In this document: piece by piece, positions 5,451 to 54,953 of the stretch | How positions within the stretch are numbered: the stretch's first letter is position 1 | How the letters are laid out: each line of letters starts with the position of its first letter | Source of the DNA: Girardia tigrina | Taxonomy: Eukaryota | Length of the DNA stretch: 64,000 bases | Direction of reading: 5' to 3' | Assembly (NCBI GenBank): GCA_001938485.1 | Contig: MQRK01178987.1 | Span: 3,053-67,052 of the forward strand | Notes under the pieces: generated by a model | Database searches by the model: none | The model's input: the letters and a program-made list of their open reading frames with translations, nothing else | Told to the model about the DNA's origin: nothing | Translations under genes and position numbers: made by a program

Positions 5451-5515
5451 ATATTATATTATATTATATTATATTATATTATATTATATTATATTATATT
5501 ATATTATAATATATT
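5451..5515. repeat. (ATATT)n microsatellite
   Basis: Direct reading. Confidence 0.95.
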
Positions 5516-6126: not shown

Positions 6127-6161
<35 letters not shown>

Positions 6162-7921
6162 GTTGTAGTTATGGTTTTTATAAAGTTAAAATTGTCAGAA
6201 ACGTTTTTGATTTTGCATTAGAGCAAAAATTTGAAGGAAAGTAAATACAAATTATCCACAATCAACTATCTCAATTTTTCAGTTCAAATAACTAATTATT
6301 TTTATTAAGAACACCAAAGTGACTGTTAATATTTTTATTAGTATAACAAGTTTGAATGTCCTCAAGACCATCTTTGTCCAAGCTTTCGTACATTTGCATC
6401 CTTCTAATTGATTTATGACTTTAATTTTATTATCTAAGTAAATTGAGATTAAATAATTCGTTAAACTATTTACTACAAATTTTATTGATTAAAAATTAAA
6501 ATAAATATTTATTATCAAAAAATATTAATTTAACTTATTTTGTTTAAAAAAATTACAATTATTTTAAATTAGAAAATGATTTAAATATTTCATAATTTCA
6601 GATAATAAGAATTCAAATATTGATCATCCATCTGATTAGGAGAGACACAATCCCAAATCAACACACAACATTCAAGAACGAAATATCAAACGTCCCAAGT
6701 ATTCCTCACAATTTTAGTCCTAACTTCCATGTAAAAGTGATCAAAATATTTTCATTGATTAACACATTTGTTGTTAAATTAGTGCATTAGATTGTTTACC
6801 AAGTAAATGGTTGCAAATTTGTTGTGATTAATGTTAAAAACACGGAGATATATAGCATATTTTAAAAATGTAACTTATTTTAATCATTATAATTATAAAA
6901 GATTTGTATGTTTTGATATTAATGTTAGTGTTCTTTGCAAAGTCTTTTGTCCAAAGTCAACGTAAAGATTACCAAAGTCCTTAATTTCATCTGTTAACAA
7001 AAATTTGTCCAGTTAAAAGATTTATAATAACTGTTTAAATATTATTAAAACTGATCATATAAATATTATTAAAACTCTTATAAAAAATGGTAAGTACATT
7101 GTTTGACAGAACCTTCATCAGGAATGTTCATTCTTGAAAACATATGTCTAACAACATCAAAGTAATATCCGAAAGCAACCAGAAAATGAACCTTCAATCT
7201 CTAAAAATTAGTACATCTTTAAATATTTATATAAAATCAAATATCCAACTTTATGTACAAAACTTATGACAAACAATATAAAAATATAATAAGTAAATCA
7301 TTGAAAGATTGTGAAAATTTGAGAGATAGTTAAATGGATTAAATGATATATATTTTGCTAAAACTTACTTTTAATTTAATAAAATCTTATGAAAACTCTT
7401 TTGAGTGTTTAAGAAATATTAATTGAATTAGTAGAAAATTGTTGTCCAAGCTTTTACAACAGTCAAATTTGATAATTGTCTCAGAAAATTCAATTTTCGC
7501 TTGCTGAGAATTTTTTTAACACTGATCACATATGGCCGATCGGTTTCTTTTGATTTGGATGAATTATATCAGTCTTAGTTTTCTGTCTCATTGAAATTCA
7601 TTTATCTTTGAATGTTGCAATCTTCATAATTATCGTATTTTCATGTATATGACCCATGGGTCATGTGTGATTTTATCTTCGTCTAACGCCACTCACTGGG
7701 TATGAATACCATGGCGGGGATCCCTTAAAATATTTTACATGAGAGAAACTAACATTTCATATTGACAAATAACGGGTAATGTATGATTTTAGTTACTCCA
7801 AATGTCCCTGAAGAGGATAAACTATGTTGGTTACATGCGTGAAAAAACGGTACTTAAAATTTAAAGTTTTAAATATTCTAAATATTCTCTTTTCCTAGTT
7901 CACTTTCATCAAAGTCTTTAA

Positions 7922-17511: not shown

Positions 17512-20500
17512 TCACTGTTGTTTACACTCGGGCTTCTGCTGGTTGGAGACGGCGTTGCTATTTCCCTGCAACAGATCGATAATCAATAAATGCTGCTCCA
17601 TTGATCGACCGACCTACTCTCTGGTAATCCGCGCTGCCGTCCGAATCGTCGTCGTCGTCATCGTCATCATCGTCTCCTTCCTCGTCGAACTAAATCACAC
17701 GACACATCAATCAATCGATCACGTGCTCAATCGATCGCTCACCTCCTCCTCGATGCCCTCGCCCGTGTAGTAGAGCACCGCGCGCGGGATGATCCTCTCC
17801 CGGATGTACTGGCCCATCTCGAAGTCGGCCTCCAGGAGACTCTCGATCTCTGACGGCTGCACGAATCGATCAATCAATCAATCAATCGATAATCAATCAA
17901 TCAATCGATTACAATGTCCTCCTCTCCGTCCAGCGAATCTGTTGGCGGCTCGAAGAAATTGAAGAACGAATCGTTCTTGACGACCTTGGTCACGGTCCTC
18001 TTCTCCGATCGATTCTTGCACTTCTGGACCTTCTTGACCAGCTTGACCGTGATGTTCTTGCCCGGGCACCAGTGGATGTGGCAGCTGCGCGAGTGGCGAC
18101 ACAAGATAATCGATAACCATTGACAGTCGATTATAACTCACCCGACCGTGCGCACGATCTCCGGGCCCTCGTACTCGAACGGACAGTCGGCCGGCGCGTT
18201 CACGTGCACGAAGTACTCCTTGGTGAGCTTCTCGTCCGTGAAGTACTCGTTCTTGGAGAAGTGGAACTCGAGCACGAACCCGTGCGCCTCCCCGGTCTTG
18301 AGCGCGCACTTGATGTCGACCAGGTGGCGCAAGATCGGCACGTCGTGCTCCTGGATGTTGTAGCGGATGATCTCGCTGTTCTGCAGCACCGTCAGCCAGA
18401 AGTCGGGCACGCCGCTCGGCACTGCGATCACGATCATAGACGGCCATCGACCCAATCAATGCACTCACCTTCCGCGCCCCCGACGGGCACCAGAGCGACC
18501 TGGTCGTCGCCGGCCGGGTCGCTGGCGATCTTCTGCTGGCCCAGATCCTCGGCCAACTCGTCCACCGCCGACTCAGAATCGTACTCGCATTCCGCATCGC
18601 ACGGCTCTCGCTTGCCGGTCACGATCTCCGATCTCTGTAACGAGTCCATCGATCAATCAAAACGATTCATTTGATCGATAATCAAATAAATTCCAGCAAT
18701 CAATTAAAAGAGATTTTAATGTCATTTCATAACGGAATTGGAACTTATTGGCGCCGGATTTTTTCATAATAAATTGATATTAAAACGTCCTCCTCGGTGA
18801 CCAGACGAATTGTAAGTGTATTTGTAAAACATTTGTTCTGTGAGCGATAATTTGCTTGTAAGTCCGTTGTTCAGAACAATTAGAGATGCTCTTAATATCA
18901 GAATAAAGGATGGAGCGCATGGACATTGGACGGACGTATTGTCACAAATAGAATTTATTCAAGCCACGACATTCAATCTCACCAGCAGAAAATAATATAT
19001 GGAAGGAAATTAAGACATTGGTGGAAAAATAAAGAAGATAAAGGAAACCAAATTGGAAAAGAAAAAGCTCCAGAAACGAGAAGAATTTTCAAAATTGGAG
19101 GCCAGGTATTGATAAAGAGAGAGAATGCATCAAAAGAAGACGACCGATATATTGGCCCTGCAATGATAATAAGACGGAGACATTAAAGAAGTTACGAATT
19201 GCAACTGCACTGTTGTTTGTATGCTGTTTAGATTTGTGACTCTCCTACTCAGATTGGATTGATGTTTATTGATTGATTATTTGAATCTAATGAAATTAAT
19301 TTAATGATATTAATTTTAAGTGCAAATTAATTAAAGTTTGATAATTATGAATTTTAATAATATTTTCAGTAAATGATTTTAACTTATTAAATTTAATATA
19401 TTTTAAAAATTAATGTTTATTTAAAAATTATGTAATGACTTTTATCCAATAAAAATTATGAGAAATTAAAATTATTATTAATCTTTCCGATTCTTTGTTT
19501 TTTTTAGATTTGAATACTGTGAAGGACTCATGTGAAAAGTTCATCCTTTAAATTTTTGAATAAATAATTTTTATAAATAATATTTGAAATAAGTAAATAT
19601 TTAAAATCAAAAGTTTTTCTAATAATGTAAAAAATATCGTAATTAATTTTAAAAATTTATTTTCGAGAATAATCGAATTTTATTTGTAGTGTAAAAAAAC
19701 TTAAAATGAAATTAATTGGGAAATAATGGATTTTTAAATAATTGATTAAAAAAATATATACAGGGTGGCCCAATGGGTACGCAGCCTCTAATTTCTGCAT
19801 ATTCTAAATCTACTCGTCAAGACGAGTATTTTGATATGTGTGATTTTTATAATTTATAATATATTTTTTACACCTCATTAAACTTTACAACATGAAACTA
19901 ATTCTAAAATAATAAAATATCATTATGGTTAATTTAGTAAAAATATGACTACAAAATTGTGTTGGTTTTTAATTTAAAAATAAGGATGTAAATTGTCAAT
20001 TTTAATATAACTTATCAGTTATTTATATTTATAATTTCATATTTTTATATAAGAATCTGGTCATAAAGAAAACGATAGAAAGTTCCTCTACAAAATTACG
20101 TAATGTCTTTTATCCAATAGAATTATGAGAAATTAAAATGTAATATGAATGATAATTCGGTACATTTTTATAAGAAATTAATGAGAAGATTGTATAAATC
20201 ATGGAAGCACGTAGCCGCTCACAATGTACAACAGCTCATGGAATAATCTGCACTGATCTGCGCTCTTTTGTGAATTGCTTTACAAAGACTGACAAACTAC
20301 TTCAACTAGTAAATCAAAAAACATTTTGAGACTCTGCTTTGTCCTGAGAATTCGGTTCGTAGAAGGGAAAATTTCATACAAAAACTTACTAATCACAAAG
20401 TTAAAGTTCCTAATCACATCATACATTATTACAAAGCATGGAAGATAAAGATCCGAAATATTTCTACTCGACACAGTTCAGAAATCGTTTAGAACGCACA

Positions 20501-22004
20501 GTGCATTTCAAACAATAATGATAATGCTCGGAAATTGTAACCATTGCCGTTACTTTTAACTGTGTTTTCGATCTCGCAGTGTGATCAAATCTACTCAGAT
20601 ATTCAGTTATAATTTTATTTTCGATAAATTCCTGTTCAATTTTATCGATCGGTAGAATAATATCAACTAAAAATAATACGTTTTACTGCCATATTTGAAG
20701 CACAAAAATCACATCGTCTTGGAAGTCTTTTAAGAAACACTCGACAAATTATCAACACTAAGAAGAGTTTCGTCCAATTGCCCGAACATTTAATAATCAT
20801 TAAATAGCATAAAATCGATAATTGTAAATATCATATAAATAGCGATGCTCCATTAGATATTTTTAATTGAAATGATTCACAAATTATTAAGAGTTAATTA
20901 ATCCTGAAATCTCTACCATTAAACTAATGATAACCGATGACCAAATACTCGTCTGATTACACCGAATTTCGGGGGAAATAATAAATAGTAAATAACATAA
21001 AGAAGCGATAAATTGGCCCGCATATAAAATGTCACTCGCCCGTCCATTCTTTACTTATTCCTATTCCTAATGAGGGAACATATTTTATTGTTTCCTTGTT
21101 TGAAGATTATACATTTGAGAGTACTTCCGCGCGGGACACGCAGGCAGGCTTGCATGACAATATAGGTACTGCACAAGCGAAAATACCCAAATAGGTTACG
21201 TAATCAATTGTCTTATTTAAATTATTTTTTTATCATTTTGCACAAAAAAATAACTGAAAGTAATTCTAAAAATCAGAGGAAAATCCAAAAAAATATTTTA
21301 AATGTAAAAAAATATTAAAATTATTTAATAAATGAAATATATGACACAAATGTGACGACAGATGGGATAAAATGTCTAATGACTCATTTAATTATATTAA
21401 TTTATTATTTAATTAATAATTTTCCCCGGATTACTAATAATTTATATTTGCTTGGACCCATGCGGAACTGCACTCATTTTAACGAGTCAATTGCAAATGT
21501 ATAAATATAATCGATAATCACTCACCTTGTCGTACACGAGCTGGTAGATATCGGCGAATTTGGCCTCGAGCACGCTCAGTTCCTTGAAGAACGACTCCTC
21601 GATCTTGATCGTGTCCATCTGGAGCTTCTTGAGCGCGCGAACTCGCTTCTTGATCGTCTCCGGCAGTCTGAATATCGATCAATATCACATGGAATGAGAG
21701 CAAATCGATCACAGACTGCTCGTAATTCTTGATGGCCTTGAGGCGCAGTCCGACTTCGTCCTGGAGCGAGGCGAGGATCTCGGGATTGTTCATCACGTCC
21801 TCGGACACGCCTAACGACACAGCGACCAGAAAATCAATTAATCGCTATATCGAGAAATCAAAGAAAAATAAAACCACTGGAATCGTGTTTTTCTTTGTGT
21901 GAAGAATGTGAATGTCTGGTATAATCGAGGCGAAAGAAAAAGAAATCAATATTCAAAAAACGTGGAAATTTTTCAAAAATTCATTACTTTGATCCTTTGT
22001 TCAT
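17512..22004 (-). CDS. NAP1: Nucleosome assembly protein 1 (NAP1L1/NAP1L4-like), 10 exons, 383 aa
   Basis: Exons 22004-21988, 21915-21875, 21810-21717, 21667-21526, 18634-18469, 18421-18142, 18084-17913, 17856-17743, 17689-17618, 17565-17512. All introns are GT-AG with consistent phases (1152 nt total). Motifs LPETIKKRVRALKKLQ, GVPDFWLTVL, FSKNEYF, DSFFNFF, DFEMGQYIRERIIPRAVLYYTGE, an acidic tail and terminal ECKQQ. Exons 1-2 are less certain. Confidence 0.95.
18790..19205 (+). mobile_element. Gypsy integrase C-terminal fragment within NAP1 intron 4
   Basis: FRTIRD..., RRIFKIGGQVLIKRE...RYIGP; similar to 2426-2740. Confidence 0.6.
20150..21390 (-). mobile_element. Probable MULE transposon remnant within NAP1 intron 4
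   Basis: Degenerate coding-like sequence with a KAIH motif near 20270 and a TIR-like end near 21340-21390; weak. Confidence 0.35.
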
Positions 22005-23784: not shown

Positions 23785-24589
23785 AATTTTTCTTTCTTCT
23801 TAAACGGATTCATATATAAACATTTTAAACATTAAATACAACGAAATATATTTGGGGTCTGTCGAAATACAATAATGAAATACAACTTTTTGAAATACAA
23901 TTTTTATTATTTTAAATATAATTTTAATCTTTTGAAATATATGTTGTATTTTTTGAAAAACAATTTATGAACATGAAATACAATTATTATTTGTAATCCA
24001 ATTGTTATGCTTTGGAACACGTGTTTAAATAGTTTACAAAATTAAAGGAATAAAATTAGCTTTGTGAATTTCTAGTAACTTATCATTTTAACATATATTT
24101 GTTAAATTATCGTCGTACATCCGATGTCATATTTATCAGTTATAAAATCTTCTTAATTTTTTTTACAATATCTATCATCCTTGTTTTATCTGCAATTTTC
24201 ATAATTTCCTTGGCTCATTTGAATCTTTCCTCGTTTGTAACCTTACGTCTAAATTTTACTTCTAAGTTACATACTTGATAAAATTGTACATTTATACCAT
24301 TTCCTTTCTTTTCTCAATGTAACTCGATTCCGAAGGTCATCTACAATTCTCTACATCCTATTATGTCTAGTTACACGTCGTTTACTACAATGATTGCAAC
24401 GTCTCTTGTCTCCTCGTGGAGCAATTCTTGGTACTAGGTGGGGTTAATCACTGTCATTCGGCTAAATTAAGAGACCTGTTAAATTGGGCCAGCACATCTA
24501 TTAACATAATTACCGCTACTACAACTCAACAAAGGAGTTTGGTAGGACTCGAAGTCATTAATCTCCCGAGATGTGGGCCACTCGAGAAG

Positions 24590-25175
24590 GGCTCCAATGT
24601 CAGACTGAAGCTAATTAATTGGAACGTCAGAGGTCTTAGTGACGAAAAGATAGTAAACCTATAATAAAAATACAGAAACCTCATCAAAGGCAGAAGCTCT
24701 TTTGTCTGCTATAGAAAGAAGTTCCTTCGTCATATAATTAATTGTTGCCAAAGATGTCGTCTCATTAACTCTTCCACTTGCAAAAGCCTTATGTCGTGCT
24801 CCCCTTCAAAACAAAATTTTCGTTGGCTCTGAGCCCCCATCCGCTTTTAGAGTTAAACAGTAACTCTAACTTTTACTACCTCTCTGCATAGACGTTAACT
24901 ACACTTGGGGAGCAGACGCGCCACCTTTGCTTACATAAACAAGTTGTGTAAACATTAGAGCGCCTTCGGCTTCTTGACCAGTATCGAGGATGACCCTACT
25001 GGTAACTCAGTTTCTTGAGGGGATGACTTTAACTTTGCTCACACAATTCATCAAGTTCGATTTTATTTATTTACTCCGGACAAGGATACCTTCGAGAAAC
25101 AAGTGACGGTCAGCCCACGTGCCCTTGTGCACGCTATGGTCTGCCTGCACCGTCTCTCTAAGATTTACCCAGACG
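24590..25175 (+). mobile_element. Internally deleted APE-type LINE with structured 3' region (copy A)
   Basis: LKLINWNVRGL (APE endonuclease N-terminus), a FLRHIIN thumb-like piece, C-terminal CRAPLQ..SEPP, then the conserved non-coding motif. Confidence 0.65.
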
Positions 25176-26459
25176 AAGTTCGATTAGTATTCATAAGCAT
25201 CTTTCGATTATACATATATTATATTTTACCTCGATTATATTTTAGTGACATTGTTTCGGAATTCAATTTACTCTTATAGTAGTTACAGGTAATTTTAGCG
25301 ATAGCAAGGGCAAGCAATAAGAGAACGAGAGTTGATCTTTATGATTTTGTAGGTGTGTAATAACAATTTTATTTTAAATTTATAATGATGCCTCGATGTT
25401 TAAAAACTTCAGGGGACATTTGCGACTCACAGTTAAAAGTCAAACAACTCCATATGATGTAGGATTCATTGAAAATCTAATCACCTTTCACTACGGTTAT
25501 CAACTCGGCAAAAGAGATTACATTTTAAGTTGAAGAAAAATTTGTGTAATTACGAACGTCTTAGCATCTGCCACAATGTATTCTTTCGCGATATTCATAC
25601 CTTATTATTTTGCTGATACTTTTCAATTCAAGATTCTAAAGACGACATATATCACTGAGGACTCCGACAAATATATATTTTTCATAAGATCTCGGTTATT
25701 TAAAGGCTCAATCGTATAACCTTAATCATTGCATGAGATCCTCCATCTCGGTTTCCTCACCAACATTTTTATTTTACTTATCAATCAATTAATGTAGCCC
25801 TGAAGAGGACTGTTTCACACATTTCTCATCTCTGATTGTGGCTGATTTAAGAATCCGCAGTTCAATTTACTCCAAGCATTTATTTCATTTTAAGTTCATT
25901 TTAAATAAATAATTTTAAAATAATTTTTAAATAAATGGTTTATAAATCAACTTTCCAAATAATACCTTTTAATTATTTTAAATATTTTAAATGAATAATT
26001 TTTTAAATTACATTTCAAATTATTAAATTTAAATACATTTTTAAATTTCCTTTACTGAGTGAAAGTCAGTTCAAAGTTATTACCAGCCTTTTATATAGTT
26101 ACAAGAATTAATATTCCGAAAATAAAATTAAGGAAATAATTAAAATAATTACAAGAAATTAAATATAAAATGAAAAGTATTAAATTGGAAATATTTAATT
26201 GGAAAACTCTCTTTAAAACTCAATTAAATTATATTCAATTAAAAATGATTAAAATAATTGAAAATAATTACGCAAGACAGAAACGGGTTAAATTAATTAT
26301 AAAATTATTATTAAATTACATTATTAAATTAAATTATTATTAAATTATTAAATTAAATTATTATTAAATTATTAAATTAAGTGTAAAATATTACAGGGTA
26401 AAGTTAACAAGATAAATTGAATAATTAAAGAAAACCGAAATTTAACATTAAAATTATTA

Positions 26460-27825
26460 TCGCCGTAAATTAAAGACATTCCCTGGTTGATTATCGTTTC
26501 ATTTTTATATACAGTTATTTACACGAACATTGCGACATGGTTACGCATCCGAATCCAAGGACCACCACACTCGATCCATTGGATGCGAAAGCGAACCACA
26601 ATCGCAATTCTGATTCTCAGACTCAAATAGCTCCTCTTCACAAAGGCATTTACTTTTTAGATATTTCAACATAGTGTTAGAGCAAGAATAGCAAAATAGT
26701 AAGTTATTAACTCAATTATTTTTCAAAGAATAATGGCAAATAAAATCAAACTTTCAATTAATGATATCATAATAAAGAGACATAAGATGTTTTAAATACA
26801 TATATTCAATGATGAAATATTAATAAAATAAATTAACTTTCTAAATAATTAACGATACCAAATTACAATATAATATTTATCAAAGACCACACGTAATGCA
26901 TAAATATACCTCCGAATTATTATCGTAAACCGTAATCGAGATTGTCCAAGAGTTTATCAAGCCTTTTCTCCCAAAATTCTCAATTAAAGATATTAGTTAA
27001 ATTTGCGTTGAAATTAATGTTCAAATAGTGTACTGTTGGAAATTAAATTAAAATTTTTCAAATAGAGTTGAAATTAAATCAAAATTTTTCAAAATGCGTG
27101 CCGTTCTCAAAATTGTGCTAAGTGTGTGAAGTATTCGAACCGATTCGGGCATTTATACCCTACCGGATACACGCAAACATTGATGGCTCGGCATCCTGTA
27201 TGCCGGTTACTGCGAGACAGGATGCGACAAAAGATGTCGTGATATCCTGGCAATTCGAATCAACAGATAAACAACTGTTGTTCTACGGCAGATTGCGAGG
27301 GGGAAGGGTATTATTGTTTTGTAAATTTCATTTTGTAAATTTTGTAATTTTCAGAACGATGTTTATGTTAGCTGTCCTTGCGGTCCTGACTACTGCAACC
27401 GACGAAAACTGGGCATCTGCGTATCGTGTGTCAACCGGTATCGTAGGTAATCGTTTATCATTCGGATTTTTCATGCTGACTGTTTATCGTTGTTTTAGCT
27501 TACTGCCGAGCTACCGCAGACACAGACAGTTGGAGGATGCCGTGATTCAGACTGAAATCAGGGTAAAAATTTTAATTAATCGAAAACTCTTAATTAATTT
27601 TCTCGGTTTCTCTTTTTAGGATTTCTACATTGTTTTGGCTGAACTGGTACTCATTCCCAAGGATCCTTCACTTTATTCTCCGTCCAGCACGCATGAAACC
27701 ATTTAAAACTAACGGGGATAGCCGAGCTTGACTATCCCCACAACTCTGACAAACTTTCATTCGCGCGGGATAATGTAATGGGTGAAATGGGTCTAGGTTT
27801 GTTGTACAAAATGTGGAACGTAACA
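26460..27825 (-). mobile_element. Long LTR-like element carrying an antisense spliced gene (left boundary uncertain)
   Basis: Minus strand starts TGTTACG at 27825; TATA GGGTATAAATGCCC at 27160-27147; shares promoter, hairpin and terminus with 53122-54679. Confidence 0.55.
27200..27706 (+). CDS. Hypothetical 116-aa Cys-rich protein, 4 exons
   Basis: Exons 27200-27307, 27355-27446, 27499-27562, 27620-27706; GT-AG introns of 47, 52 and 57 nt; spliced frame open throughout; CPCGPDYC..CVSC motif. Alternative start at ATG 27183 via a possible 23-nt intron. Confidence 0.6.
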
Positions 27826-31019: not shown

Positions 31020-31498
31020 AACGCGGATAGTTTAATACATGCATGAGAGAGAGCACGCTCTGAGATTCCAATTACATTGCTAGAGAATTCCAAACTGCAG
31101 AAATATTTCCACCAGTAACACATCATCCCCGAACGACGTGTTCCAGCTGGGGGCTACACGCCCGTCCTGGTCTTCAGAATCCGAGGGCGCTCCAGACCCA
31201 GCACTATATGGTAGATGTGGGGCGAGGGAGACACGTCCGGCCGTCCGACATAGTTAGAACGGGTTGAGGTTAAACCCATAAAAACCTCTGGGGGCTCTGA
31301 GCAACCAAGAATGTTCCGAACAATGAACGGTCGTGACAAATGGCAGTGGATAAAAATGAAATGCGACGAATTGAAATCAGAATTGTTGTTGATAAATTGT
31401 CTCACATTTATGTCACAAGAAATGTATAAAAATCCAATGATGACAGTTGTATAATTCCATGGCACGAGACAGAAACGACAGAAATTTGTTAAATTCAA
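31020..31498 (-). mobile_element. LINE 3' end with degenerate CCHC-like motif and structured 3' region (copy D)
   Basis: CRFCLVPWNYTTVIIGF, SEPPEVF, then GGAGCGCCCTCGG, GGGGATGA and GCGTGC..GCATG blocks. Confidence 0.65.
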
Positions 31499-31752: not shown

Positions 31753-33877
31753 AATATTATTAATAAAAATTTTTTTATAAAAACAACCACGTTTTTCAAG
31801 CATTACCAATACACTAAAAAGAGGAAAATAATTTTTTTTCGAGACATGTACGAAATTTTATACCTAACCCAAAAACGTGGGGCGGATTTCTGAACTACTG
31901 CTATTAGTAACTGCTATTTCCTCTTTACTGCTTTTTAGTAACAATCGATCATTTCTATGCCCCACGTTTTTGATTATGTATAAAATTTCGCACATGTCTA
32001 GAAAAAAATTATTTTCCTCTTTTTAGTGTATTGGTAATGCTTGAAAAACGTGGTTGTTTTTATAAAAAAAATTTTTATTAATAATATTATTTAACTATTT
32101 TTAGTTATCATTTAGGAATTCAAATCTTTCAATTGATTTCGAATAACAGAAATGATAATAAAACTAAAATAACAAATTTTTATTTTAATAAAAGCAAGTT
32201 TAGATGTCTCTCCGATCGCGTCGGACTTGGGACACAGACTGTCCTCCCAGTTGCGGTTGGCGTCGTTCTTGTTCCACGCGCGCTCGATCACCATGGTGAC
32301 GCAATCGACCGGTAATATCGCCTCTATTGACCGTCTGACGTGTTCTGGGAGCTCGAACGATAAATCGTAACACGATTCGACTTTCCGTTTTTTCGATTTG
32401 GATTTCGCGTTCGGAGAAATCGAACAATTGCTCGCATGGGTCGATGTCGCTTCGTTGTAATTCGAGGTCGATTTGATGCGCTTAGTGGTCGGCCGGAGTG
32501 ATTTCTTTATGTCGCACACTGGTGGCGGCTCCGAGGACGAATCGTTGTTGATACTGCTGGATTTCGTGTCTTTCTTGGCGTTGCTGGTGCCGGAGGAGAT
32601 GTAGTTTTCTTGGGACGGTAATTTTTCGAGTTTCGAGTTGAAGATGTTCTCGAGCGTCAGAGTCATGCTGATCAGATCGATTTCCGGAGGATTGAAGATG
32701 TAGCAATTCTGGAACACGAGTCNNNNNNNNNNNNNNNNNNNNNNNNNNNNNNNNNNNNNNNNNNNNNNNNNNTGAAGATGTTCTCGAGCGTCAGAGTCAT
32801 GCTGATCAGATCGATTTCCGGAGGATTGAAGATGTAGCAATTCTGGAACACGAGTCTCACATCGGTGATGCACTCGTCGGCGTTGTAATAGGGTTTCTTG
32901 ATCAATCGATTTTTTATGGTGGTAAAATCCATTGGACAATGCACGATTTTCGGATAATCTGGNATATTGAGCGCCGTATGATCGACCGGATGGAGAAACG
33001 GAAAGGAATATCTGTGTCGCATTAGTTGCGGAAGAATTTTCTTTTTGATGAATTGAAGTCGATTGGTGAGAACACTGGCTGGACGAGGCAGACCGGAATT
33101 TCGATTGCGGAAATTATTTATTTATCGTTTTTGTTGTCGTTATTGACGAGTTCGAGTGAATGGGAACTCATTCGACCAAAATGGGAAATTATCAACCATT
33201 CAATTATCAGACGAAAAGCATAATTAATTTTCAAAAAATGTATTTTGTAAATGTTCCATATTTAAACAATGTACAATATTTAAACAATCTTTTCATTATA
33301 AAAAAAACCAAATTTACATGAAAATTTTTTACTCAAAAAAGTCAGACCGTTCACTAGAATTACAAAAAAATTTTAATCCATTGAAAGAAAACATCGAATT
33401 AATTAAGATAAAATTATTAAGTTCGATATGTTAAATCAAGAAGTTTTATTATAAATGGGCTTTATAATCACTTGAAGAAAATAATATGCAATTTTAATTA
33501 AGAGTGTCTCAATTTCGAGGAAATTGTAATAATAAATAAGAAATATAGGATTTTATGTATATATATTTAATATTTATAAATACTGATAAAAATTTGTGTC
33601 ACTACATCAAGTTTTATTTCAAAATAATGTTTTTGTACGTATTAATTAATATTATTGATTTTTTTTCATAAAGTTAAAATTTTCATAAAGTTAAATTATA
33701 GCATATGCGGTTTATGTAGAGCCGTAAATGTTTTAAAATATTTTATTGTCATCGGAAGCAAGCCTGTATAAAAAAAATTCAGCTCAATTGGATGACTGAA
33801 AGTGGTCGAAAAATCAATCGCAAGATTTGTTCCAGACAGACAGACAAGAAACCAAGCTAAGTAAAACGTGGTAAAAA
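31753..33877 (-). mobile_element. Helentron/HINE-like element, copy containing the bromodomain cassette
   Basis: Inverted paralog of 22826-23412; ~125-bp fold-back arms 31753-31882 / 31959-32088; (CAGA)n at 33832-33845; cassette 32202-33607 bounded by CAAGTTT repeats. Confidence 0.7.
32112..33171 (-). pseudogene. Intronless, truncated BET-family (BRD2/3/4-like) single-bromodomain gene copy
   Basis: LTNRLQFIKK..LMRHRYSFPFLHPVD..PDY..IVHCPMDFTTIKNRL..NCYIFNPP matches BET bromodomain 1. There is a 1-nt frameshift near 33120 after ATG 33171, and the C-terminus runs into repeat DNA. Confidence 0.85.
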
Positions 33878-37255: not shown

Positions 37256-39984
37256 CAGTGGCGTAGCGACTGTTTTTGGTGCCCGGGGCGGTCCTAAGAT
37301 TTATCGCCCCCCTAACCCTAACCCCTGATTCGGAACCATTAATTACTGTTTTTACTAAAAATTAAAGAGAGTCAGAAAATATTTACTTTAATTTCATATT
37401 TTTCTTGCAATACTCTTATTCTCATACTAAAAATTACCAAGTAACGAAGTCATTTAAAAATTTACAATTTTATTTACAATTTACAAGCGAACTTTTCGCA
37501 CTTTCAATTCTGCAAATTTATTGATAACAGTATCAAAATTCAGTTCAGCAGAAAACTCCCTCTCAATGTAGAGGACTACCAAGTCTGTAAGCCTTGATTG
37601 GCTCATTGTAGATCGGAGATAGTTCTTAATGAGCTTTAATTTAGAAAACGAGCGTTCGCAGCTGGCAACGCTAATAGCCCGGGTAAGAAAGATGCGCAGC
37701 AAAATCACAATATTATGGACGGAGTCTCCAAGGTAATATCTCTGTGTGAAGCTCAAAAGTTCTAAAGGTCCGTCAATTCTGTTATTTCCTGAAGCTCGGA
37801 CAAAATACTGCAGTCTTATTCTTTCGGCTAAGAATTCCTCTTTCTCCACCTCGTCTTCTATTTCACCAAGTTGGCAATCGTAATTATCATCATAGAGATT
37901 CGATGGTGCAATAACAGCATATCTGTTTGCAAGATCATGAACTTGTTGAAATCTTGAATATATTTCGTCTATCAACCTGTCTATGACAGACAGCATTTCC
38001 CGTCTCAACTCAGCATCAAATGTCATCGCTACATTAGTCGATCCCTCGCCATCCATTCTTTTTTTTTTGCGAATACGACGCTCCATACTAATCCCCATTT
38101 CAAAGCAGAGCTTTTTGGATTCGTCCATTGCACAGTCCACCATCTTTTCTCTATTCTTAAAAATGTTATCTCTCAGTGATATGAGCTAGACAGAACTTTG
38201 ATGCAGATCGAGCCCTTTTGTTTGAAGATACTTCTGGGCATCATTTATCTCTGGTAGAATGGAATTCCAAAGGTTCAAAAGCGATAGAAACGGAAATGAC
38301 AGTACTGATGATAGGAATAAAGATGCATCTGATCTTGTCATTAAATTTCTCTTTCCTTAATGAGCTTCTCTAGAGCAGTCATGACTTGTGATAATTTTTC
38401 CACCAACACATTTACAGCATATTCTTTCCCAGTTTAACTTTTACCAAATGTTCACGGAGCACAGGGTCATACTTGGCCAACAAATGAACCAATTCCAAAA
38501 AGTTTCCTCTATTTTCCTGGTCTCCATCTTCGTGGATGTCTTCTCGATGGCCCCTTAGTGCCAGGTTTTGCGAGAAGAGAAATCTGATGATGTCCAGTAA
38601 TCTAGCTAGACTTTCTCGCCATTTCTTAGTCTCCTTCTCAATTAATTCTTCCTCTACTTTGTTTATTGCCTTTCCATTAGCGAGCCGGATCTTAAGCTCC
38701 TTCCACTTGAGGAATGCCTGCGCATGCGATGCGCTAACTTCGTGCTCATGAACTTTAGGATTTAATTTCCACCAGTTCTTAAAGCCTTCTTCAGTAGAAA
38801 AACTAGACAGCCTAACTGAAAACAGTCTGCTGCAAAAGTAGAACAGGGACTCCTTTGAAGGAGAATACACCATCCATGTTCTCATACTTTTCTCTCCATT
38901 CCGTAGATCACGAAAAACCATTTTTGGTTAGCTTTCTAGTGTTACCTTTTGTCCTTGTGCCTGGTCGTGGTACTTCTTTGAATTAACAATGAAGGTGCTG
39001 CATAGAAGTATATCCTTGACGAACAAGCATAGCGCGAATTTCATGGCTAATCTTAACTGACCAAAGACGTAAAAAATCACTGTAAAATCACTTATAAAGT
39101 ATGTTTTCAGAGTGATTAATTGGTGCATTTCTTGTGCTTCAATTTCCCTCTCATAAACTTCTGCATCAATGCCAACTTCACCTTCCACAGTAACAGTATC
39201 GACTTCAATTGTAGCATTAGCAATATCAAATTTATCCACAGTCTCTATTGGATTATCGTCCTTTTAAACGACGAATTGGTTTTACCGTATTAAATAAGAA
39301 TAAATACAATGCAATATCCAAATTTTTTTAACAAAATCGATTTTTTTAATTTTCAATTCTTTTCAGCTTCATAAAAAAATCAAATTTATTTGCTAAAAAA
39401 GTAATTATTTAAAAAAAAATCAAAAATTTAAAATTAAAAAAAATGACGATTTTTTTACGGTAAGTATTGCTTACGTATTTTTTTCTTATGTACTTTTTTA
39501 TAAATTAGTGGGTACAAGTTGTGCTGAACAACAATTACAATACTTTGACAGCGGATATTAAGTATTAATTAATCAATTAATTGTTTTTTTTAACGATTAA
39601 AATGTTTTAGCTTAATCAAAATTATAACCACATACTTTATACATGCTTTTGAAATTAAGCACTAATTTACAGACATACAAAGTAAGAAAATGCAATCAAA
39701 TAAAATCTAATAACCGGAAGTATTTAACTGAAATACAAAAATCAAAACATTGTCATGTAACGGTAAAGAATTTGTGCATATCTGGTAAGAGACAAATCTT
39801 CCAACCCATTGGCAGTTTTCATTAAATTAGTTCAGTTTAACATTCTGTTATGTCCAGCATTTATGGTCAGATTTTTCTTCGTTTTATTTTATACATAATA
39901 TTTCTCCCATTCACAAATGCCGCCACCAACAGTCGTGCCGCCCGGGGCAGATCGCCCCCTCCGCCCCCCTACGCTACGCCACTG
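37256..39984 (-). mobile_element. hAT transposon (Tip100/ZMYM1-like), degenerate transposase
   Basis: TIRs CAGTGGCGTAGCG / CGCTACGCCACTG; 8-bp TSD CAGACTAC; ORFs 38412-38921 (LALRGHRE..NRGNFLEL) and 37481-38143 (SVASCERSFSKLKLIKNYLRSTM). Confidence 0.95.
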
Positions 39985-43875: not shown

Positions 43876-43963
43876 TTCATATAAATTTTAACATTTCAAA
43901 ACAGTTTTTATAAAATATTCAAATCAAATATTAAAATTATTGACGATGATGTATGATATTTCT

Positions 43964-44524: not shown

Positions 44525-44836
44525 ACTAATTAATAATCAATTCACCTGTATATAATACAAAAAATGATGATTATGTAACCGATTACATGAAATCATGCTA
44601 ATCAAAAATTCTCAATAAGCTGGTTGAGACTGCCGATAGAACATTGATTTGTAGGGCAACGTGACCTAATCAACAATGCTTCACACGACACTCCCAATAA
44701 CTGTCAAAATGATTACACAGAATTTTGAAATTATCAAAATTAACATCACATTTTCACTTTTTCCTATGTTCTGCAATATTACTCTTACTCTCTTTTCGAC
44801 CATGTTCTTGAATTCATTTACAGAGATGACGGATAT

Positions 44837-47643
44837 GTTGCGTTAGAATCAAAATTTAGTAAAAACATATAAAATTTAAGTATCGATTTAAACAAAATAA
44901 TCAGAAATATCGTAAAACATAAAAAACAAGAGAAATCACACAATAAACATAAGAATCGTAACAAATCAGCAACAAAAAGTGTTAAAATGTATATAAATGA
45001 GATAAAAAGTGTAAATATTGGCGGAAAAGTAAATAATTACAGATAAATAATTGATAAAATCAGAATAACGCGCGCAAATGAATAGATAAAAATCCGCAAA
45101 AATAATGACAAATTCCCAAATAATTTTACGAGCAAAATAAAACAAAAATTACGAAATTCCGTTAGGAATTCGCAGAAAAATAGCAAAATTGAAGTAAAAA
45201 TAATAAATAAATAATCGATAAATAACGATTAATTAACGGATTTGAATGAAATAAACAAATAAAATAGTCGGAAAAATCATGAAAATACTCGTAAAATACC
45301 AACAGATAATAAAAGATCATAATTACACCGAAAAACGAGAGAAAATAGCGAATTAATACAAATAGTATAAATTGGAACATCGCCAAATAAAGAAATAACG
45401 ATGAAAATCTCACAAAATGAAGACGAAAAATTCATAAAATAATCGGAAAAATCGTAGAAAAATCAACAAGATGTGAAAACGTTATAATCAACACTAATCG
45501 ATCAAGATTTCGAATGAAAATAATTGAAAATTAATAAAATTGTATTTTACTGCAATATTGTGACCAAAAAACGTAAATATGAATGAAAATCGATCGATCA
45601 GAGCGGAAAAAATTCGTAAAAATTATGATAAAAATTATGCGATATAAATCATGAAAAAATACGCAGTGAAAATAGAAAAATACGAAAAGAAACATAAAAA
45701 AATCAATTAAATCGAAAATCATTCAAAATAATCAATCAATGAGTCCAATACTATGCGGACGCCACTGAAACAGATTCCAAGCGATGTAGAACAATGTAAA
45801 AAGCTGCAAAAATGTAATAATGATAAATATCCATCGAAGCCGCAATAAATTATAAATTGGAAATATATCAAACGGAATGAATTAGATGCGGGAAAAATCT
45901 AAAAAATTATTCAAAAAATCAGAAATAAATAGATTAACGGAAATCATNNNNNNNNNNNNNNNNNNNNNNNNNNNNNNNNNNNNNNNNNNNNNNNNNNNNN
46001 NNNNNNNNNNNNNNNNNNNNNNNNNNNNNNNNNNNNNNNNNNNNNNNNNNNNNNNNNNNNNNNNNNNNNNNNNNNNNNNNNNNNNNNNNNNNNNNNNNNN
46101 NNNNNNNNNNNNNNNNNNNNNNNNNNNNNNNNNNNNNNNNNNNNNNNNNNNNNNNNNNNNNNNNNNNNNNNNNNNNNNNNNNNNNNNNNNNNNNNNNNNN
46201 NNNNNNNNNNNNNNNNNNNNNNNNNNNNNNNNNNNNNNNNNNNNNNNNNNNNNNNNNNNNNNNNNNNNNNNNNNNNNNNNNNNNNNNNNNNNNNNNNNNN
46301 NNNNNNNCCGTTGGAATCCGGAAACGCGGTTTGAAATGCGCGCGCAGGACGTCGTCACCGATGAGATACATTTGGTTTGGTTAAACAATCATCATCCGAA
46401 GGTCCGGAAAAAGGCTGAAAAGATTAATAAAATTAGTAAAATTAAAACAAAACAAATGTACATACCGGATTAATCATCGATCCAAAATTTTCTAATTCTA
46501 GAAAGTCCAAAAATGGAACTGACGTGTTCCAATCGAAATTGGTCGTACGATTCCAAAACGTACGTGGACCAATTAAGATTCAACACGCGACAATTTTAGA
46601 CTGAAATCTTGGTATAAATACCGAGCAGTTTTTGACANNNNNNNNNNNNNNNNNNNNNNNNNNNNNNNNNNNNNNNNNNNNNNNNNNNNNNNNNNNNNNN
46701 NNNNNNNNNNNNNNNNNNNNNNNNNNNNNNNNNNNNNNCTAGGTTGGTATTGTTAGAATTTTCGCGTCCGAGAGGGAAAGTAATGGATTACTCTCTCTCT
46801 CGGGTCCCGAACATTTAAATTTATTTTACCGAGCGGTCGGTCCCCCGAATATTAATTATGTTTATTTTGTTATTGTTAATTATGCCTATGCTAAATAGGT
46901 CATTTTATTATCCAATTATATTTTATAATCATTATTTTATTTTAAATATTTCTTATGGTCAATTTCAGCTCGAATACTCTCGGGTAGGGCAACCCTTAAA
47001 ATTATTTTATTAAAATTCTTGAAGGCTGGTTCCGGAATGCATTTTTGCGCGGCCAGAATAAGTCCCCGGTTTATGAAGTCTCTGAGTGACAACAAAGCTC
47101 AAGAATTCATACCGGAAGGCAGTTTCGGAATCCGACTGCTATCTTTCATGACCGCTTACGTAGAATAAGGCTTAAATAATAAATCATCAACTCCTATTTT
47201 AACCGTTGTAATTTTAGATGATGATACAAGAAATAGAATTACGAGAAGCTAAGAAAACCATTGAGAGATTGCAGCAAGAAAACAAAGTGTTAAGAAAAGC
47301 CAGGGCGACAGATCGCCAAGAGATATTGAATCTACGAGATAGCGTGGAGATCTTATCGATGAAGTTAAAAGTGACTAAGGAAGCCTCCATCAAGCCTGAT
47401 GAATACGCTCGCGTAGTAAGACGAGGCGTAGCAATGGAAAGTCGCATTCGAGAGCTCGAGCGATTATACTCCGAGCAGTTGCGGCTCCGCATGAGGGAAA
47501 AGTTAAGGGCCGACGAAGGGAAAGAGTCGCGCACCTTAGGCACTCAATGGTGTATAACAGATTATCGCGGAGAGGATTATGTCAATAGATGAAAACGACA
47601 AAGGCTCCGTAAGAGCATAGACAATGTAGTTAAGTGTTTTACA
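44837..47643 (+). mobile_element. Long LTR-like element with TATA box, antisense intron and sense ORF (boundaries uncertain, gapped)
   Basis: GGTATAAATACC at 46611; minus-strand 51-nt intron 46465-46415 (GTATGT..TACTAAT..TTTTCAG); sense ORF 47218-47592. Confidence 0.45.
47218..47592 (+). CDS. Hypothetical 124-aa coiled-coil protein
   Basis: Intact E/R/K/L-rich ORF with heptad-like pattern; ATG directly follows TTTTAG, a splice-acceptor-like site. Confidence 0.5.
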   Translation: MMIQEIELREAKKTIERLQQENKVLRKARATDRQEILNLRDSVEILSMKLKVTKEASIKPDEYARVVRRGVAMESRIRELERLYSEQLRLRMREKLRADEGKESRTLGTQWCITDYRGEDYVNR

Positions 47644-47984
47644 AAATAAAATTTTGATATGAGTTTTATATGAGTTGTTGATGTATTATTTATAAAATAT
47701 TTCATGCACTGATTAGTTAAAATTTTGTTAGCATTTCTTTCTTTTTCTATAACTCTTTATTTTGACACCAAAATCACATACATGAATGGAGGATTCGCGT
47801 CAGGGTATTCGAGCCCCATACTTTTGTAAATAGTTTTATAATGATAAAAATATTAAAAGATGAAATGTTGTCATAGCTCTTATACCAGTTAAGGGGGTTC
47901 AACATAGTAAAATATAACATACAGTAATTGGGGTTGACACAACACATCATGGGGTTACTGTATCAATGAAATTGTTTTAATCTA

Positions 47985-48216
47985 ACATCACATCATACCC
48001 ATTAGGGCTGATCTGGTCTATCTGGTCTTAAACCTGTGTAGATCTGGAACCTGGAAGGTCCTCATCACTTATCACTGCGTGCAGATGGTATGCTGGGTGA
48101 GAGGCAAGTTGTGGTCATAGATATTGAGAGAGGAGGAATTAAAATGTACATGCAGAGGTTGTATTAGTATGATAGTGTTTTTGGTTGGTTACCGATAACC
48201 TGGGGGCTCAAAGCCA
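47985..48216 (-). mobile_element. LINE 3' structured region (copy E, most diverged)
   Basis: GGCTTTGAGCCCCCAG, CCATCTGCACGCAGTG..GAGGACCTTCC and GGGTATGATG blocks. Confidence 0.55.
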
Positions 48217-48280
48217 AACGACTCAGTTACCCAAGATATGTTCATATGTTTTTAAACACCACACAACCACAACAGATAGT

Positions 48281-49959: not shown

Positions 49960-50345
49960 AATATGTCGTGCTCCCCTTCAAAACAACATTATTGATGACT
50001 CTGAGCCCCCATCCGTTTTCCATTAGAGTTCAACGGCTACTCTATCAAACTAAGCTAATTACATTTCAATGGGGAACAGACGCGACTACTTTGCTTGCAT
50101 CAACGAATTGTGCAAACATTAGAGCGCCTTCGGGTTCTTAACCAGTAACGAGGATGACCCGACTGGTGGCTGAGCTTCTAGAGGGGATGATAATAATTCT
50201 ATGCTACGATTATAACCTTATCGACGCGCTAACACTTGAAACTACAGGAAACGAAGAGAGCCTCAAGAAAGAAAATGACGAGCGGTCCGCGTGCCCCTTG
50301 CATGCTGCAGCCGGTCGGCATCACCCTCCCAAGGTTCCTCGCCCA
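49960..50345 (+). mobile_element. LINE 3' end with structured region (copy B)
   Basis: Aligns with 24792-25175 with compensatory changes. Confidence 0.7.
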
Positions 50346-53121
50346 AAAAATTGAAATTCATCATATTATTTAGGTTCGATCTCTAAACTAATCTATTAAA
50401 ATAATAATCAAGGTTCTCACAAAAGAAATTACTAAATTAAAATTATAAGTAAGTAAACTAATGTCCACTTTTCTCTAAATACTCGACGATCTTCATCCTA
50501 AGGCAATCGGATTCAGGTCATTTACAAGACTAAAGTTAACAATAATTCTATTTTTAACAGATAAAAGATTTTAAACAATAATTTTGACACTTAATTATGG
50601 GACCTAGAACCTCTTTTCAATGTTGTGGGGAGTTGCTTGTTGTCCACTCCTGTATGAAGGTATACAAATACTTACTAATGACTGTCGAAAATAGAAAACA
50701 TAATATCCCCAAATATATAAAATGTTTCTTTTTCATTTATTTATACGCTGGGTTCACCAAGATCAAAACAAGTAATTGTCGAATTTAACAATGAGACGAT
50801 TAAGTTAATATGATAAATCATTATTTATACTGCAATAAAAGTATAATTGAATTAATCATTATTCATAAAAGTTTACTAAAACTCAGAAGAGTTTGAACAG
50901 CTAAATAACAAATTCTAACAACTACATATTATGTCTTCGAATATAAGAGTATATATTTTTGTTAGGGTTCTGAAAAAATACATGTGAACACTTTTGAAAA
51001 AATTTTATATAGGAAATTTTTAAATAATTCTTTTAGTAAAATTAGTAACTTCAAATAAAATAATATTTAGTCTAACAAAACTTGGAATTAAAATTANNNN
51101 NNNNNNNNNNNNNNNNNNNNNNNNNNNNNNNNNNNNNNNNNNTGTTTTATCTCATCAATTTTCAAGGCTGAGGAAAATTACTATATAAACAACATCAAAT
51201 TCAGTCTTAGTTTGCCCAAAAATATTTGCAAGAAATTTTAACTGAAGAGAATTGTTCGTAAGTAGAGTAATTATTAATATTTACTTTATATTTTTCAAAG
51301 TTGAATAAAACCTGTAGTACCCTGTATGGGAGAACAAGGTTTATAGAAAAGTTTTAAGTTTAAATCAAAGCATCGTTCGTTTTGGGAGNNNNNNNNNNNN
51401 NNNNNNNNNNNNNNNNNNNNNNNNNNNNNNNNNNNNNNNNNNNNNNNNNNNNNNNNNNNNNNNNNNNNNNNNNNNNNNNNNNNNNNNNNNNNNNNNNNNN
51501 NNNNNNNNNNNNNNNNNNNNNNNNNNNNNNNNNNNNNNNNNNNNNNNNNNNNNNNNNNNNNNNNNNNNNNNNNNNNNNNNNNNNNNNNAAGATAAAAGAT
51601 TATTGATTAAAGAATAAAGAAAAGAGATTTACGATTAAAGATAGAGATTTAAGATTTGTATTTTAAAAAGTGAATAATCGATTTAAAGATAATTTTTAAT
51701 AATTAAAACCCCAACATTTTGAATTCAATCGTATAGATAAAACAAATAGATTTAAAACTAGATTATAATTAGAACCAACGAGGAAATGAGACCTAAAGAC
51801 ATAAGTCGAAAACATTCTATCGTTAAAATGATCAATACTATTCAAATCTATTTTGTTAATAACAAGTTTTACGAATATATAAAGGTTAGGATACTCATTG
51901 CTAATGTCATTTTGCGTTGAATAAACGAAGCTATCTAACATAAAATTGAGTTATTATACACTTGACTTATACTTCTTAATAAACTAAATGAGGATAAAAT
52001 TTTTACACTCATAACTCATTGAACTTTGCAACTTCAACGATTGAATATATACATTTATTCGAATTCCACACTAACATTTGTAACATAAAAGACAATGCTA
52101 ATATATAAATTTGTTATAACAAAACTATTTAAAGTTAGACGAATTGCATAAAAATTTATTAAAATTAAAATTTCATTAAATAAAATATGTATAAAAAAAT
52201 TAATAAGTCAAAACAAAATAATTATTAAAAGAGGGTTGGATGTCCGCATATTGTTAGGGTTTCGTGAATTACATCGTCGGTGATTGATACGTCGGTCTCA
52301 GATGATTATTCAAGGAGTTTGTGTTTATCTAATGATTTATTCTAGTACGATATCTCGTAAATTCCGATAAACCTCTGTTTTGAATATTGTTCGATAATCC
52401 GTAAGTCTCTGTTCTAGTTTTTTGTTTAAATTTTCATTTCTCTTTTTGGTGGCGCTTCTAATTGAAATTATTCTGTCTTTTAAAGAAGTTTTGACTACTA
52501 GACAGACAGGTGTATCTGAACTTGCATATACAATGTATTTGGTGATTATTTGGTGAATGCTCTGTCACTCTGTGGTTAGGTGAGTGCATGTCAGAATTCT
52601 GTAGGCTGTTGTTAGATTCTATAAAATCTCTGAATTGAATAGTTGACTTTTGCGATTGTCTGTATGTATGCGTTTGATTAATTTTGTTCATTTTCAGGTT
52701 ATTCATCAGCTGACCTCGTTTTGGAAAATCACAAGTTACTTATCAGAGGATTTCTTATTTTCGTTATATACGCGTCATTGATTATTTTGTCCGATTATTA
52801 TAAATCTTTATTATCTTTTATTATCTTTTTCAAATAGTGATTTTCAAGTGATGTAGTAATGCTAAAGGATTTACGGTAAACAACATTAATTTTAGAGTTA
52901 TTTTAAAATTATCAATAATAGAAATATAATATCGATGTGATAATAATCATATCCTGTCTCCGAATGTGGACAAGTTAATTCCATAAACCTCATGTGATGT
53001 ATTTAAACTGAAATATTGTCAATGTTTATAACATAGAAATAAAACCATAATGAAACGAAATAAATTAAGCCTTAATACGCGCCATTGGCATTACAATTTG
53101 TGTAACAGATTTATTTAAAGG

Positions 53122-54679
53122 TGTAAGACATTTTAAACACAAAATTATTTATTCATCGTCATACACTAAAATCAACGAAAATCAAAATTAGGCTTTTGAC
53201 CAACTTTACTAAATTTTAATAACGAAATATTATCATTAATAGGTATAAAATCTGGTCAATGAACTCATTCATACTAGTATACATATTAATACCAACACAA
53301 CGCTTTAATCCACCTTCTATGTACATAGCTACACTTTCCGACACTCTCCACACTTCCTACTTTGCTACAACTTCAACACTGATAACTTTCACCTTTATTC
53401 GCTTTCTCGATCCACACTTCCTCCATCTTTCTATCGTCGCATCACATCTACTCCTCTCGCATTTCTCTCTCACTCCTCTACAACTACGACGGCACCAAAT
53501 CGTCCTCTCAACCCTCCTCGACATCTACAGAGCTCGTATGGTGGTATTAAATGATAGTAGGTGAGAGTGACCAGATAAAAATCATATATCAAATCAATAA
53601 GTCAAATAAGTTATTAAATATCGTATATTGAATCGTAATATAGAGTTAATGAGTCAAAATAAATCGTTACAATGGTTAAAATGATAATAAAAAAAACAAA
53701 ACGAAATCAATTACAATGGTTAAAGTGATAATAATAATAAAAAAACAAAACGAAATCAATAGACTGAGGTATGAACTAAGATAGGGTTACCTTTTCGATA
53801 ATTCGACAAGTACTGCTAGCAATAATTGATTGGTAATCAAAATTTATAAGGTTTTCCTCTTCTCCGCAAATCGGTAAATTAAATTGAAATATGATTTAAA
53901 TGTAATTGGCTCGATCCAATCAAAGTTTATAAAATCTTCTTCTTCTCCCAAATTCAAGGTTTATAATATCTTCTCCTTTTCCCAAATTTAATTATCAAAA
54001 TTAAAGTATATCGTCAAAATTACAGATAATACTGTGCACTGGCTTTTGGTGCGAGCCGGTTCGGGTATTTATACCCTACAGGGAATTCGAAGCGTCCTGT
54101 TTATGAATCGAGTTAAGGATAGTGTCAACATCCGTAAGTTGGTCTTCAAAATGTCGGTTCGGCGAATTCGTAGGGCGTCCTGTTTATAGGAAGGTTAAAG
54201 AAGACAATGTCGATCGTTACCTTCGTAACATCCTGCTTAGCGGTGGCAGCATCTATGTCGGCGCGTGGACCAACGATGTTTATCGTTTCGACAAACTTGG
54301 CAAGGTAAACTATTAGTATGCGTTTCCTAATTGTTTATACTTATTCAAGGTCTACTATAATGATGTCGAGACAGCGATTTCGCTTTGGATTAGGTGAATT
54401 TAATTCTAGTAATTAAGATTTTTTAATTAAGAAATTTTTAACTTTTCAGATTATTCAAGCAAGCCAAAAAGAACGAAATCTCATACCGACTCGGCATTTC
54501 AACAAGCTGAGAGTCAATTTAAAAACATTTGAGGATAGTCGAGTTTGACTATCCTCAAACACTCGGAACACGGGCTCTCATACGTAAGGGGTGTTGGGTT
54601 TGGGACAAGATTTATATGGTGATATCTCGGGAGATATAGTACAGGAAAGGGTCTGTATAATTGTTTCTTTGTCGTAACA
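53122..54679 (-). mobile_element. Long LTR-like element carrying an antisense spliced gene
   Basis: Ends TGTAAGACA..TGTCGTAACA; TATA GGGTATAAATACCC at 54076-54063; degenerate minus-strand ORF from ATG 53524 directly after CTGTAG. No TSD found. Confidence 0.55.
54103..54532 (+). CDS. Hypothetical 90-aa protein, 4 exons
   Basis: Exons 54103-54133, 54190-54304, 54350-54393, 54450-54532; GT-AG introns of 56, 45 and 56 nt; spliced frame open. A second frame is also open over exons 2-4. Confidence 0.5.
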
Positions 54680-54835: not shown

Positions 54836-54953
54836 TAGGACGCGCTTCCACCTTATCCATCTGCAAGCAGTGCATAATTTGGAGCGCCTTCGAGTCCATC
54901 TTGACTAGGAAAGGCGATGAACCTCCCAGTCGAGTCAGTATCGATAGGGGTAT
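54836..54953 (+). mobile_element. 5'-truncated LINE structured region (copy C)
   Basis: GGACGCGC..GGAGCGCCTTCGAGTCC, a GACT..AGTC hairpin and a GGGG block. Confidence 0.6.

Follow-up and report, generated by a model that had tools for sequence, protein, structure and literature searches.

A conserved RNA domain in the U5 end of Ty3/Gypsy long terminal repeats of Girardia tigrina with complementarity to the primer tRNA-Pro

What element carries the five diverged copies of an ordered, structured repeat found in a 64,000-nucleotide stretch of Girardia tigrina DNA (contig MQRK01178987.1, positions 3,053 to 67,052; hereafter the window), on which strand does the repeat act, and what might it do? 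An initial annotation had read it as a folded RNA in the 3′ untranslated region of a LINE family. The ordered blocks were present at each of the five places named there, so that the five-copy repeat itself was borne out; the full set of blocks was not common to all, since copy 5 is without several and copy 3 is a fragment that retains only the central hairpins (H2 and H3), the T-arm box and the D-arm box described below. In the AT-rich, fragmented 1.43-Gb assembly of the same genome, the pattern GACGYG-N30-60-GAGCGCCYTCG, which represents one family alone, gave 1,598 matches against 0 for the reversed control, and the repeat is therefore far beyond chance; the DNA search of the genome yielded 2,720 first-look candidates. 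Viral contigs gave at least 120 pattern matches, which we treated as chance, the second primer-binding site (see below) being present in 0 and the T-arm box in 1 of the 80 examined. Two short contigs retrieved with a U5 query, from a source run guessed to be RNA, span H2/H3 and H4 of related copies; since neither strand nor ends can be read from them, they carry no weight as evidence here. Similarity among the copies breaks off sharply at TGTYG, about 40 nt before GAGCCCCC, with unrelated flanks upstream of that boundary; within subfamilies it extends for kilobases.

The extended alignments identify the five copies as the U5 ends (the last ~380 nt) of Ty3/Gypsy long terminal repeats (LTRs). 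Seven elements of 1,291-4,716 bp, three of them in the window, could be delimited as solo LTRs with TG...CA ends, and all seven end in CG(T/C)AACA followed by a 4-bp duplication of the bases that precede TG; we take the terminal motif to be typical of Gypsy elements. Read in the sense opposite to that of the initial annotation, a purine tract and a common internal flank precede the LTR start, and a primer-binding site (PBS) lies 1-6 nt past the LTR end. The polypurine tract (PPT) and its shared flank are common across subfamilies, and the PBS-LTR junction pattern has 228 matches genome-wide and 0 for its control. The PBS is an exact 18-nt complement of host tRNA-Pro genes, five of whose seven loci were confirmed by ARAGORN. 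Internal regions (loci L201 and L210) encode gag (CCHC), reverse transcriptase (PF00078, 9e-35), RNase H and integrase in Gypsy order, with protease assigned by position only, and the Gypsy open reading frames (ORFs) beside the PPT lie on the strand opposite to the one first read. From the junctions and ORFs together, the motif forms the final ~380 nt of the LTR and, in genomic RNA, immediately precedes the PBS. A TATA-like box stands 565-741 nt from the LTR start in four of the seven LTRs, and the U5 domain is presumably transcribed. No fetched stretch runs from PBS to PPT in this fragmented assembly. The copies and the box of copy 1 are placed in the window as follows.

24792..27825, minus strand: copy 1, solo LTR of 3,034 bp with TG...CA ends and target duplication CTTA; orientation from the PBS/PPT junctions of sister copies
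27148..27159, minus strand: TATA-like box of copy 1, ~670 nt from the LTR 5′ end; putative promoter element
31030..31338, plus strand: copy 4, U5 end of a diverged LTR; other end not found
44836..48274, plus strand: copy 5, solo LTR of 3,439 bp including gaps, target duplication TATC; motif at ~47985-48274
49964..54679, minus strand: copy 2, solo LTR of 4,716 bp including gaps, target duplication AATA; motif at 49964-50340
54836..54953, minus strand: copy 3, fragment of a diverged LTR end with H2, T-arm box, H3 and D-arm box

Several of the earlier readings fall with this assignment. The one point in favour of a LINE 3′ UTR structure was an endonuclease-like fragment, WNVRGL (presumably an APE start motif), ~170 nt from copy 1, but this N-terminal piece occurs in the flank of copy 1 and in no other fetched locus. 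Against a LINE stand the sharp TG boundary, the 4-bp duplications, the PBS, the PPT and the Gypsy pol, together with the want of a poly(A) tail; flanks are unrelated except on the PBS side, and the element runs for kilobases to its CA end, contrary to a non-LTR 3′ UTR. This junction evidence refutes the LINE reading, which retains virtually no probability. Nor did we find support for a coding frame ending in SEPP with a CCHC-like motif, as the element starts at TG and the flanks upstream are unrelated; the proposed pairing of CCCC in those codons with a distal GGGG was not confirmed either. The strand first proposed is contradicted by the PBS, PPT and gag-pol, which appear only in the opposite sense: read as annotated, just four matches had a purine tract before the TG end, and after the CA end no common flank was seen in 30 loci or in 30 of the 35 matches selected for TGG. 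A DNA transposon was also considered and rejected, terminal inverted repeats being absent in all seven elements.

Other features of these LTRs and of the window were noted along the way. The WNVRGL piece (24560-24650, plus strand) belongs to a decayed non-LTR element unrelated to the motif. Copy 5 sits inside, and splits, a Penelope GIY-YIG frame, one of two such Penelope-like fragments (48275-48649 with 44476-44835, minus strand, and 63150-63700, plus strand). The window also holds a different, short-LTR retroelement (40193-43878, minus strand) with 141-bp direct repeats 98.6% identical, reverse transcriptase, RNase H and an integrase zinc domain; a decayed hAT transposase (37481-39263, minus strand); and pieces of host genes of the NAP family, peptidase M24 and bromodomain types (17893-21844, 58973-59437, 32672-33121). 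Within the LTRs, GT-AG intron-like stretches of ~45-60 nt occur on the plus strand at 27300-27355, 27560-27620, 54305-54350 and 54390-54448, and also at L075 and L079; several LTRs have one or two of them at the same place, on the strand antisense to the element, in the interval from the LTR start to the TATA-like box, which points to a bidirectional promoter with a spliced transcript in the antisense direction. Every family A LTR examined has a conserved hairpin, GATAG...CTATC (27732-27745 and 54533-54555), at a distance of 80-120 nt from its 5′ end. Between integrase and PPT, extra ORFs (L205:1430-2197 and 4773-7070; L204:431-2457; L201:7573-9551) have signal- or membrane-like stretches and differ among subfamilies, one of them with a sub-threshold match to a viral fusion glycoprotein, and L150, L151 and L166 have coiled-coil-like ORFs of 150-160 aa directly after the PBS, before any recognisable gag.

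On the sense strand the domain reads, 5′ to 3′, hairpin H4, D-arm box, hairpin H3, T-arm box, hairpin H2, the 5′ strand of a helix P1 and a variable spacer, followed by a pseudoknot, a second PBS, the 3′ strand of P1 at the LTR end, and the PBS itself. In copy 1 these elements lie as follows, in sense order.

25105..25154, minus strand: hairpin H4, family A only
25019..25026, minus strand: D-arm box, complementary to tRNA-Pro nt 15-25 with one bulge
24977..25003, minus strand: hairpin H3, between the T-arm and D-arm boxes
24967..24973, minus strand: T-arm box, complementary to tRNA-Pro nt 49-55, resembling a primer activation signal (PAS); one mismatch in copy 1
24918..24964, minus strand: hairpin H2, with a conserved bulged A near its apex and significant covariation
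24907..24917, minus strand: predicted P1 5′ strand, pairing with the LTR terminus
24841..24867, minus strand: predicted H-type pseudoknot, adjoining the 5′ side of the second PBS
24831..24839, minus strand: second PBS-like 9-mer, complementary to the tRNA-Pro 3′ end including CCA and overlapping a short palindrome
24792..24804, minus strand: LTR 3′ terminus, the integrase attachment end; predicted P1 3′ strand

This predicted fold is conserved across lineages. The pseudoknot was predicted in 70 of 81 copies on the sense strand, in 3 of 81 on the antisense strand and in 36 of 435 shuffles (by family, 47/55 in A, 23/26 in B and 0/5 in C); with relaxed rules and 50 diverse representatives it was found in 32 on the sense and 10 on the antisense strand, against 49 of 400 shuffles, and was undetected in the remaining 18. 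Its stem sequences differ wholesale among lineages, yet remain paired. H-type pseudoknots obey rules of loop length, and loops of this type (~1 nt, 0-1 nt and an A-rich 2-7 nt) form on the sense strand only. Of the 42 representatives with an identifiable end (9 others were dropped), 29 had a P1 more stable than its shuffles by a margin exceeding 3 kcal/mol; P1 also accounts for the conserved R-GACG block of the initial annotation, which pairs with the attachment end. The GGAGC/GCTTC-type stem offered there as an example of compensatory change did not hold, only 177 of 392 cells being Watson-Crick and 300 of 392 paired when wobbles on that strand are allowed; the GGARC strand pairs instead with the LTR terminus.

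For H2 and H3, 87-92% of cells were paired in a set of 79 copies, obtained from 111 segments after removal of near-duplicates, with 223 G-U against 82 A-C combinations on the sense strand, whose registers were chosen from the same data as the strand test. Taken singly, the hairpins show only a slight preference for that strand (lower z on sense in 49/79 and 47/78). RNAalifold energies favour the sense strand in family A (n = 55) and family B (n = 26), and H4 gave -8.8 sense against -3.7 antisense in 47 copies; in family A the many decayed copies make the absolute consensus energies weak. When all pairs of columns in 79 diverse copies were tested for covariation against a tree-simulated null, two pairs at the H2 apex were significant (E ~0 and 0.01), and most of the next-ranked pairs fall in H2 or H3, whereas a narrower two-clade set of 77 copies (families A and B) gave none. 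Covariation, claimed for the stems in general, is thus upheld for the central hairpin in the diverse set and absent from the narrower one. The wobble pairs and the predicted pseudoknot geometry favour the strand opposite to that first read, and a folded element of 200-380 nt, conserved across lineages of a retroelement, is supported. An Rfam covariance-model search with E up to 1 returned three weak miRNA matches elsewhere in the window and none in eight diverse loci, with no match to the motif itself. The domain is a real, conserved and previously unannotated cis-acting RNA domain.

Three unpaired blocks of the predicted fold are complementary to tRNA-Pro, the one primer tRNA, in one genome, to which all our comparisons refer. 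The sequence GAGCCCCCA equals the tRNA-Pro 3′ end, so that on the sense RNA a second PBS, of 9 nt, stands ~40 nt short of the LTR end; its signal in the tRNA scan (z -8.2) is partly built in, as copies were anchored on this block. With the second PBS removed, a scan of 33 tRNA-Pro windows over 50 representatives gave z-scores of -3.1 and -4.1 for the T arm (nt 47-59) and of -2.5 to -2.8 for the D arm (nt 11-25); these scores are modest and are the strongest among the 33 windows. Both peaks correspond to the parts of the tRNA that are freed once its 3′ 18 nt anneal. Complementarity to the T and D arms near the PBS, a PAS-type feature, is thus present with moderate statistics. In 35 of 47 representatives the T-arm and D-arm boxes were both found, at a distance of ~55-61 nt from each other; in the other 12 the D-arm box was unrecognisable. 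Among the 100 matches listed of 1,234, a hand count of the variable D-box dinucleotide gave AT 31, TT 35, TA 22, TC 11 and AC 1, all within the 8 of 16 dinucleotides that keep the one-bulge duplex; each of the five corresponds to the tRNA sequence with one base left out, or to a wobble version of it. Variants of the T-arm box are mostly transitions, 43 of 72 being wobble-compatible, as neutral decay would also give. Longer unbroken matches to tRNA-Pro occur in more diverged lineages, window copies 3 and 5 included.

On balance, we think that the U5 domain probably serves as a multipartite primer-loading and initiation platform for tRNA-Pro, just upstream of the PBS; the earlier suggestion of a link to reverse transcription is likewise probable. 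In such a scheme, the tRNA-Pro 3′ end would anneal first at the PBS, and the freed 5′ strand of the T arm and the D arm could then pair with their boxes, which H3 would hold apart, as with the HIV PAS and the Ty1 boxes. The role of P1 would be to keep the domain close against the true PBS, and contact with Gag/NC may fall to H2 and its bulged A. A tRNA docked at the second PBS would have its 3′ end stacked on the pseudoknot, making extension impossible. Because reverse transcriptase at that site would face the pseudoknot, and integrated LTR ends fit priming at the true PBS only, the second site would be one of staging or bridging. More tentatively, it may act as a pseudoknot-capped decoy that, with the T-arm and D-arm boxes, catches and unfolds tRNA-Pro and then hands it to the true PBS or bridges two genomes. 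The window copies, being solo LTRs or fragments without a PBS, would be relics of selection on the full-length element.

The main rival, which we regard as unlikely on its own and which is compatible with primer loading rather than exclusive of it, is a packaging and dimerisation signal, in which H2 would bind Gag, the palindrome would pair two genomes and the tRNA-like matches would pair within or between genomes. The nearly invariant bulged-A motif of H2 is in keeping with packaging; the palindrome that overlaps the second PBS is conserved, with a variable centre (0-2 nt) too short for a normal hairpin loop, and 5′ palindromes serve dimerisation in Ty1 and Ty3 according to the available text of PMC3592414 and PMC11381356. 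Such a signal leaves unexplained the D-box variants and the conserved GAA of the T-arm box, both of which fit tRNA-Pro better than the PBS.

A role on the strand first read, in minus-strand strong-stop DNA or an antisense transcript that aids strand transfer or mimics a tRNA, appears improbable. Watson-Crick stems are strand-symmetric, some columns prefer G-T on that strand, and the two short intron-like stretches at the far end of several LTRs hint at antisense transcription; yet the pseudoknot loops fit the sense strand only, alifold energies favour it in every segment that folds, and wobble counts do so by ~3 to 1. Least credible of the three is a new self-cleaving or processing ribozyme borne in the LTR as in retrozymes, which we consider very improbable. 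The compact multi-helix fold with its pseudoknot and invariant unpaired bases might invite that reading, and LTR-borne hammerheads exist (PMC4918200), but Rfam gave no relevant match on either strand, the tRNA matches, the integrase end and the H2 apex between them account for most invariant bases, and a cut anywhere from the transcription start to the PBS would sever the template for minus-strand synthesis. The catalytic role raised in the initial annotation thus finds no support, with no sign of a known ribozyme.

Selection and opening of the primer tRNA have been worked out in few models (HIV-1, MLV, Ty1, Ty3 and Drosophila gypsy), and the LTRs described here add thousands of natural variants of a compact 250-380-nt domain with testable tRNA contacts and an unusual layout in which a duplicated PBS is set against a pseudoknot. 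If primer staging is correct, an entire radiation of retroelements would have kept a tRNA chaperone encoded in RNA. In a fragmented, repeat-rich genome the motif is also a marker of LTR ends and their orientation, and each solo LTR scatters through that genome a 9-nt site complementary to tRNA-Pro 3′ fragments.

By every feature that could be tested the element is a member of Ty3/Gypsy; the best 120 matches to its reverse transcriptase are 45-54% identical and mostly unnamed. No description of the layout was found in the literature searched; subscription journals lay outside that search, as did Burro supplements and Repbase-type entries, which may describe these LTRs. Burro, as characterised in the available part of PMC6431247, is likewise an abundant planarian Gypsy element, whose LTRs are large and whose env-like sequence is related to the fusion proteins of mononegaviruses, and one internal ORF here matches PF24664 at 4.6e-6, below the cut-off, in a locus with nested insertions. 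Burro has an internal region of >25 kb with a giant polyprotein, whereas here, in a comparison by description only and with incomplete regions, gag to PPT spans ~9-10 kb with an extra ORF after integrase; the accessible passages of PMC11410931 and PMC8532177 touch on Burro without LTR detail. Helenus TRIMs share a tRNA-like sequence in the LTR and 4-bp target duplications but are, in the portion of PMC10886601 at hand, short elements whose colinear A-box/B-box tRNA-like promoter is unrelated to their PBS, whereas the present LTRs are multi-kb and their short antisense tRNA pieces, in permuted order, match the primer tRNA itself; the element is not Helenus- or TRIMp3-like.

Extended primer contacts are established for several retroelements, and the excerpts available to us permit a closer comparison. 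The HIV-1 PBS segment, with its PAS, likewise has a structured U5 beside an 18-nt PBS, a box farther upstream with complementarity to the tRNA T arm and an attachment end embedded in a helix (available text of PMC11181671), while the domain described here also has a predicted D-arm box, a copy within U5 of the 5′ half of the PBS, an abutting predicted pseudoknot and a multi-kb LTR. Ty1, for which extended primer boxes and a pseudoknot near the priming site are likewise established, uses a 10-nt PBS for tRNA-iMet, boxes 0, 1 and 2.1 beside the PBS in the GAG region and a long-range pseudoknot, to judge from the parts of PMC3592414 that were accessible; the present elements have a full-length PBS of 18 nt, boxes placed in U5, 170-240 nt upstream, and a predicted pseudoknot that is local and of H-type. 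Of the same superfamily are the bipartite PBS of Ty3 and the 5′ and 3′ PBSs of Drosophila gypsy, with extra sites for the T and D arms; as far as the available sections of PMC5371799 and PMC11381356 (Ty3) and PMC1635307 (gypsy) describe them, those second sites stand at the 3′ end of the genome and bind other regions of the tRNA, whereas in the G. tigrina elements all sites cluster in U5 and one of them repeats the site for the tRNA 3′ end.
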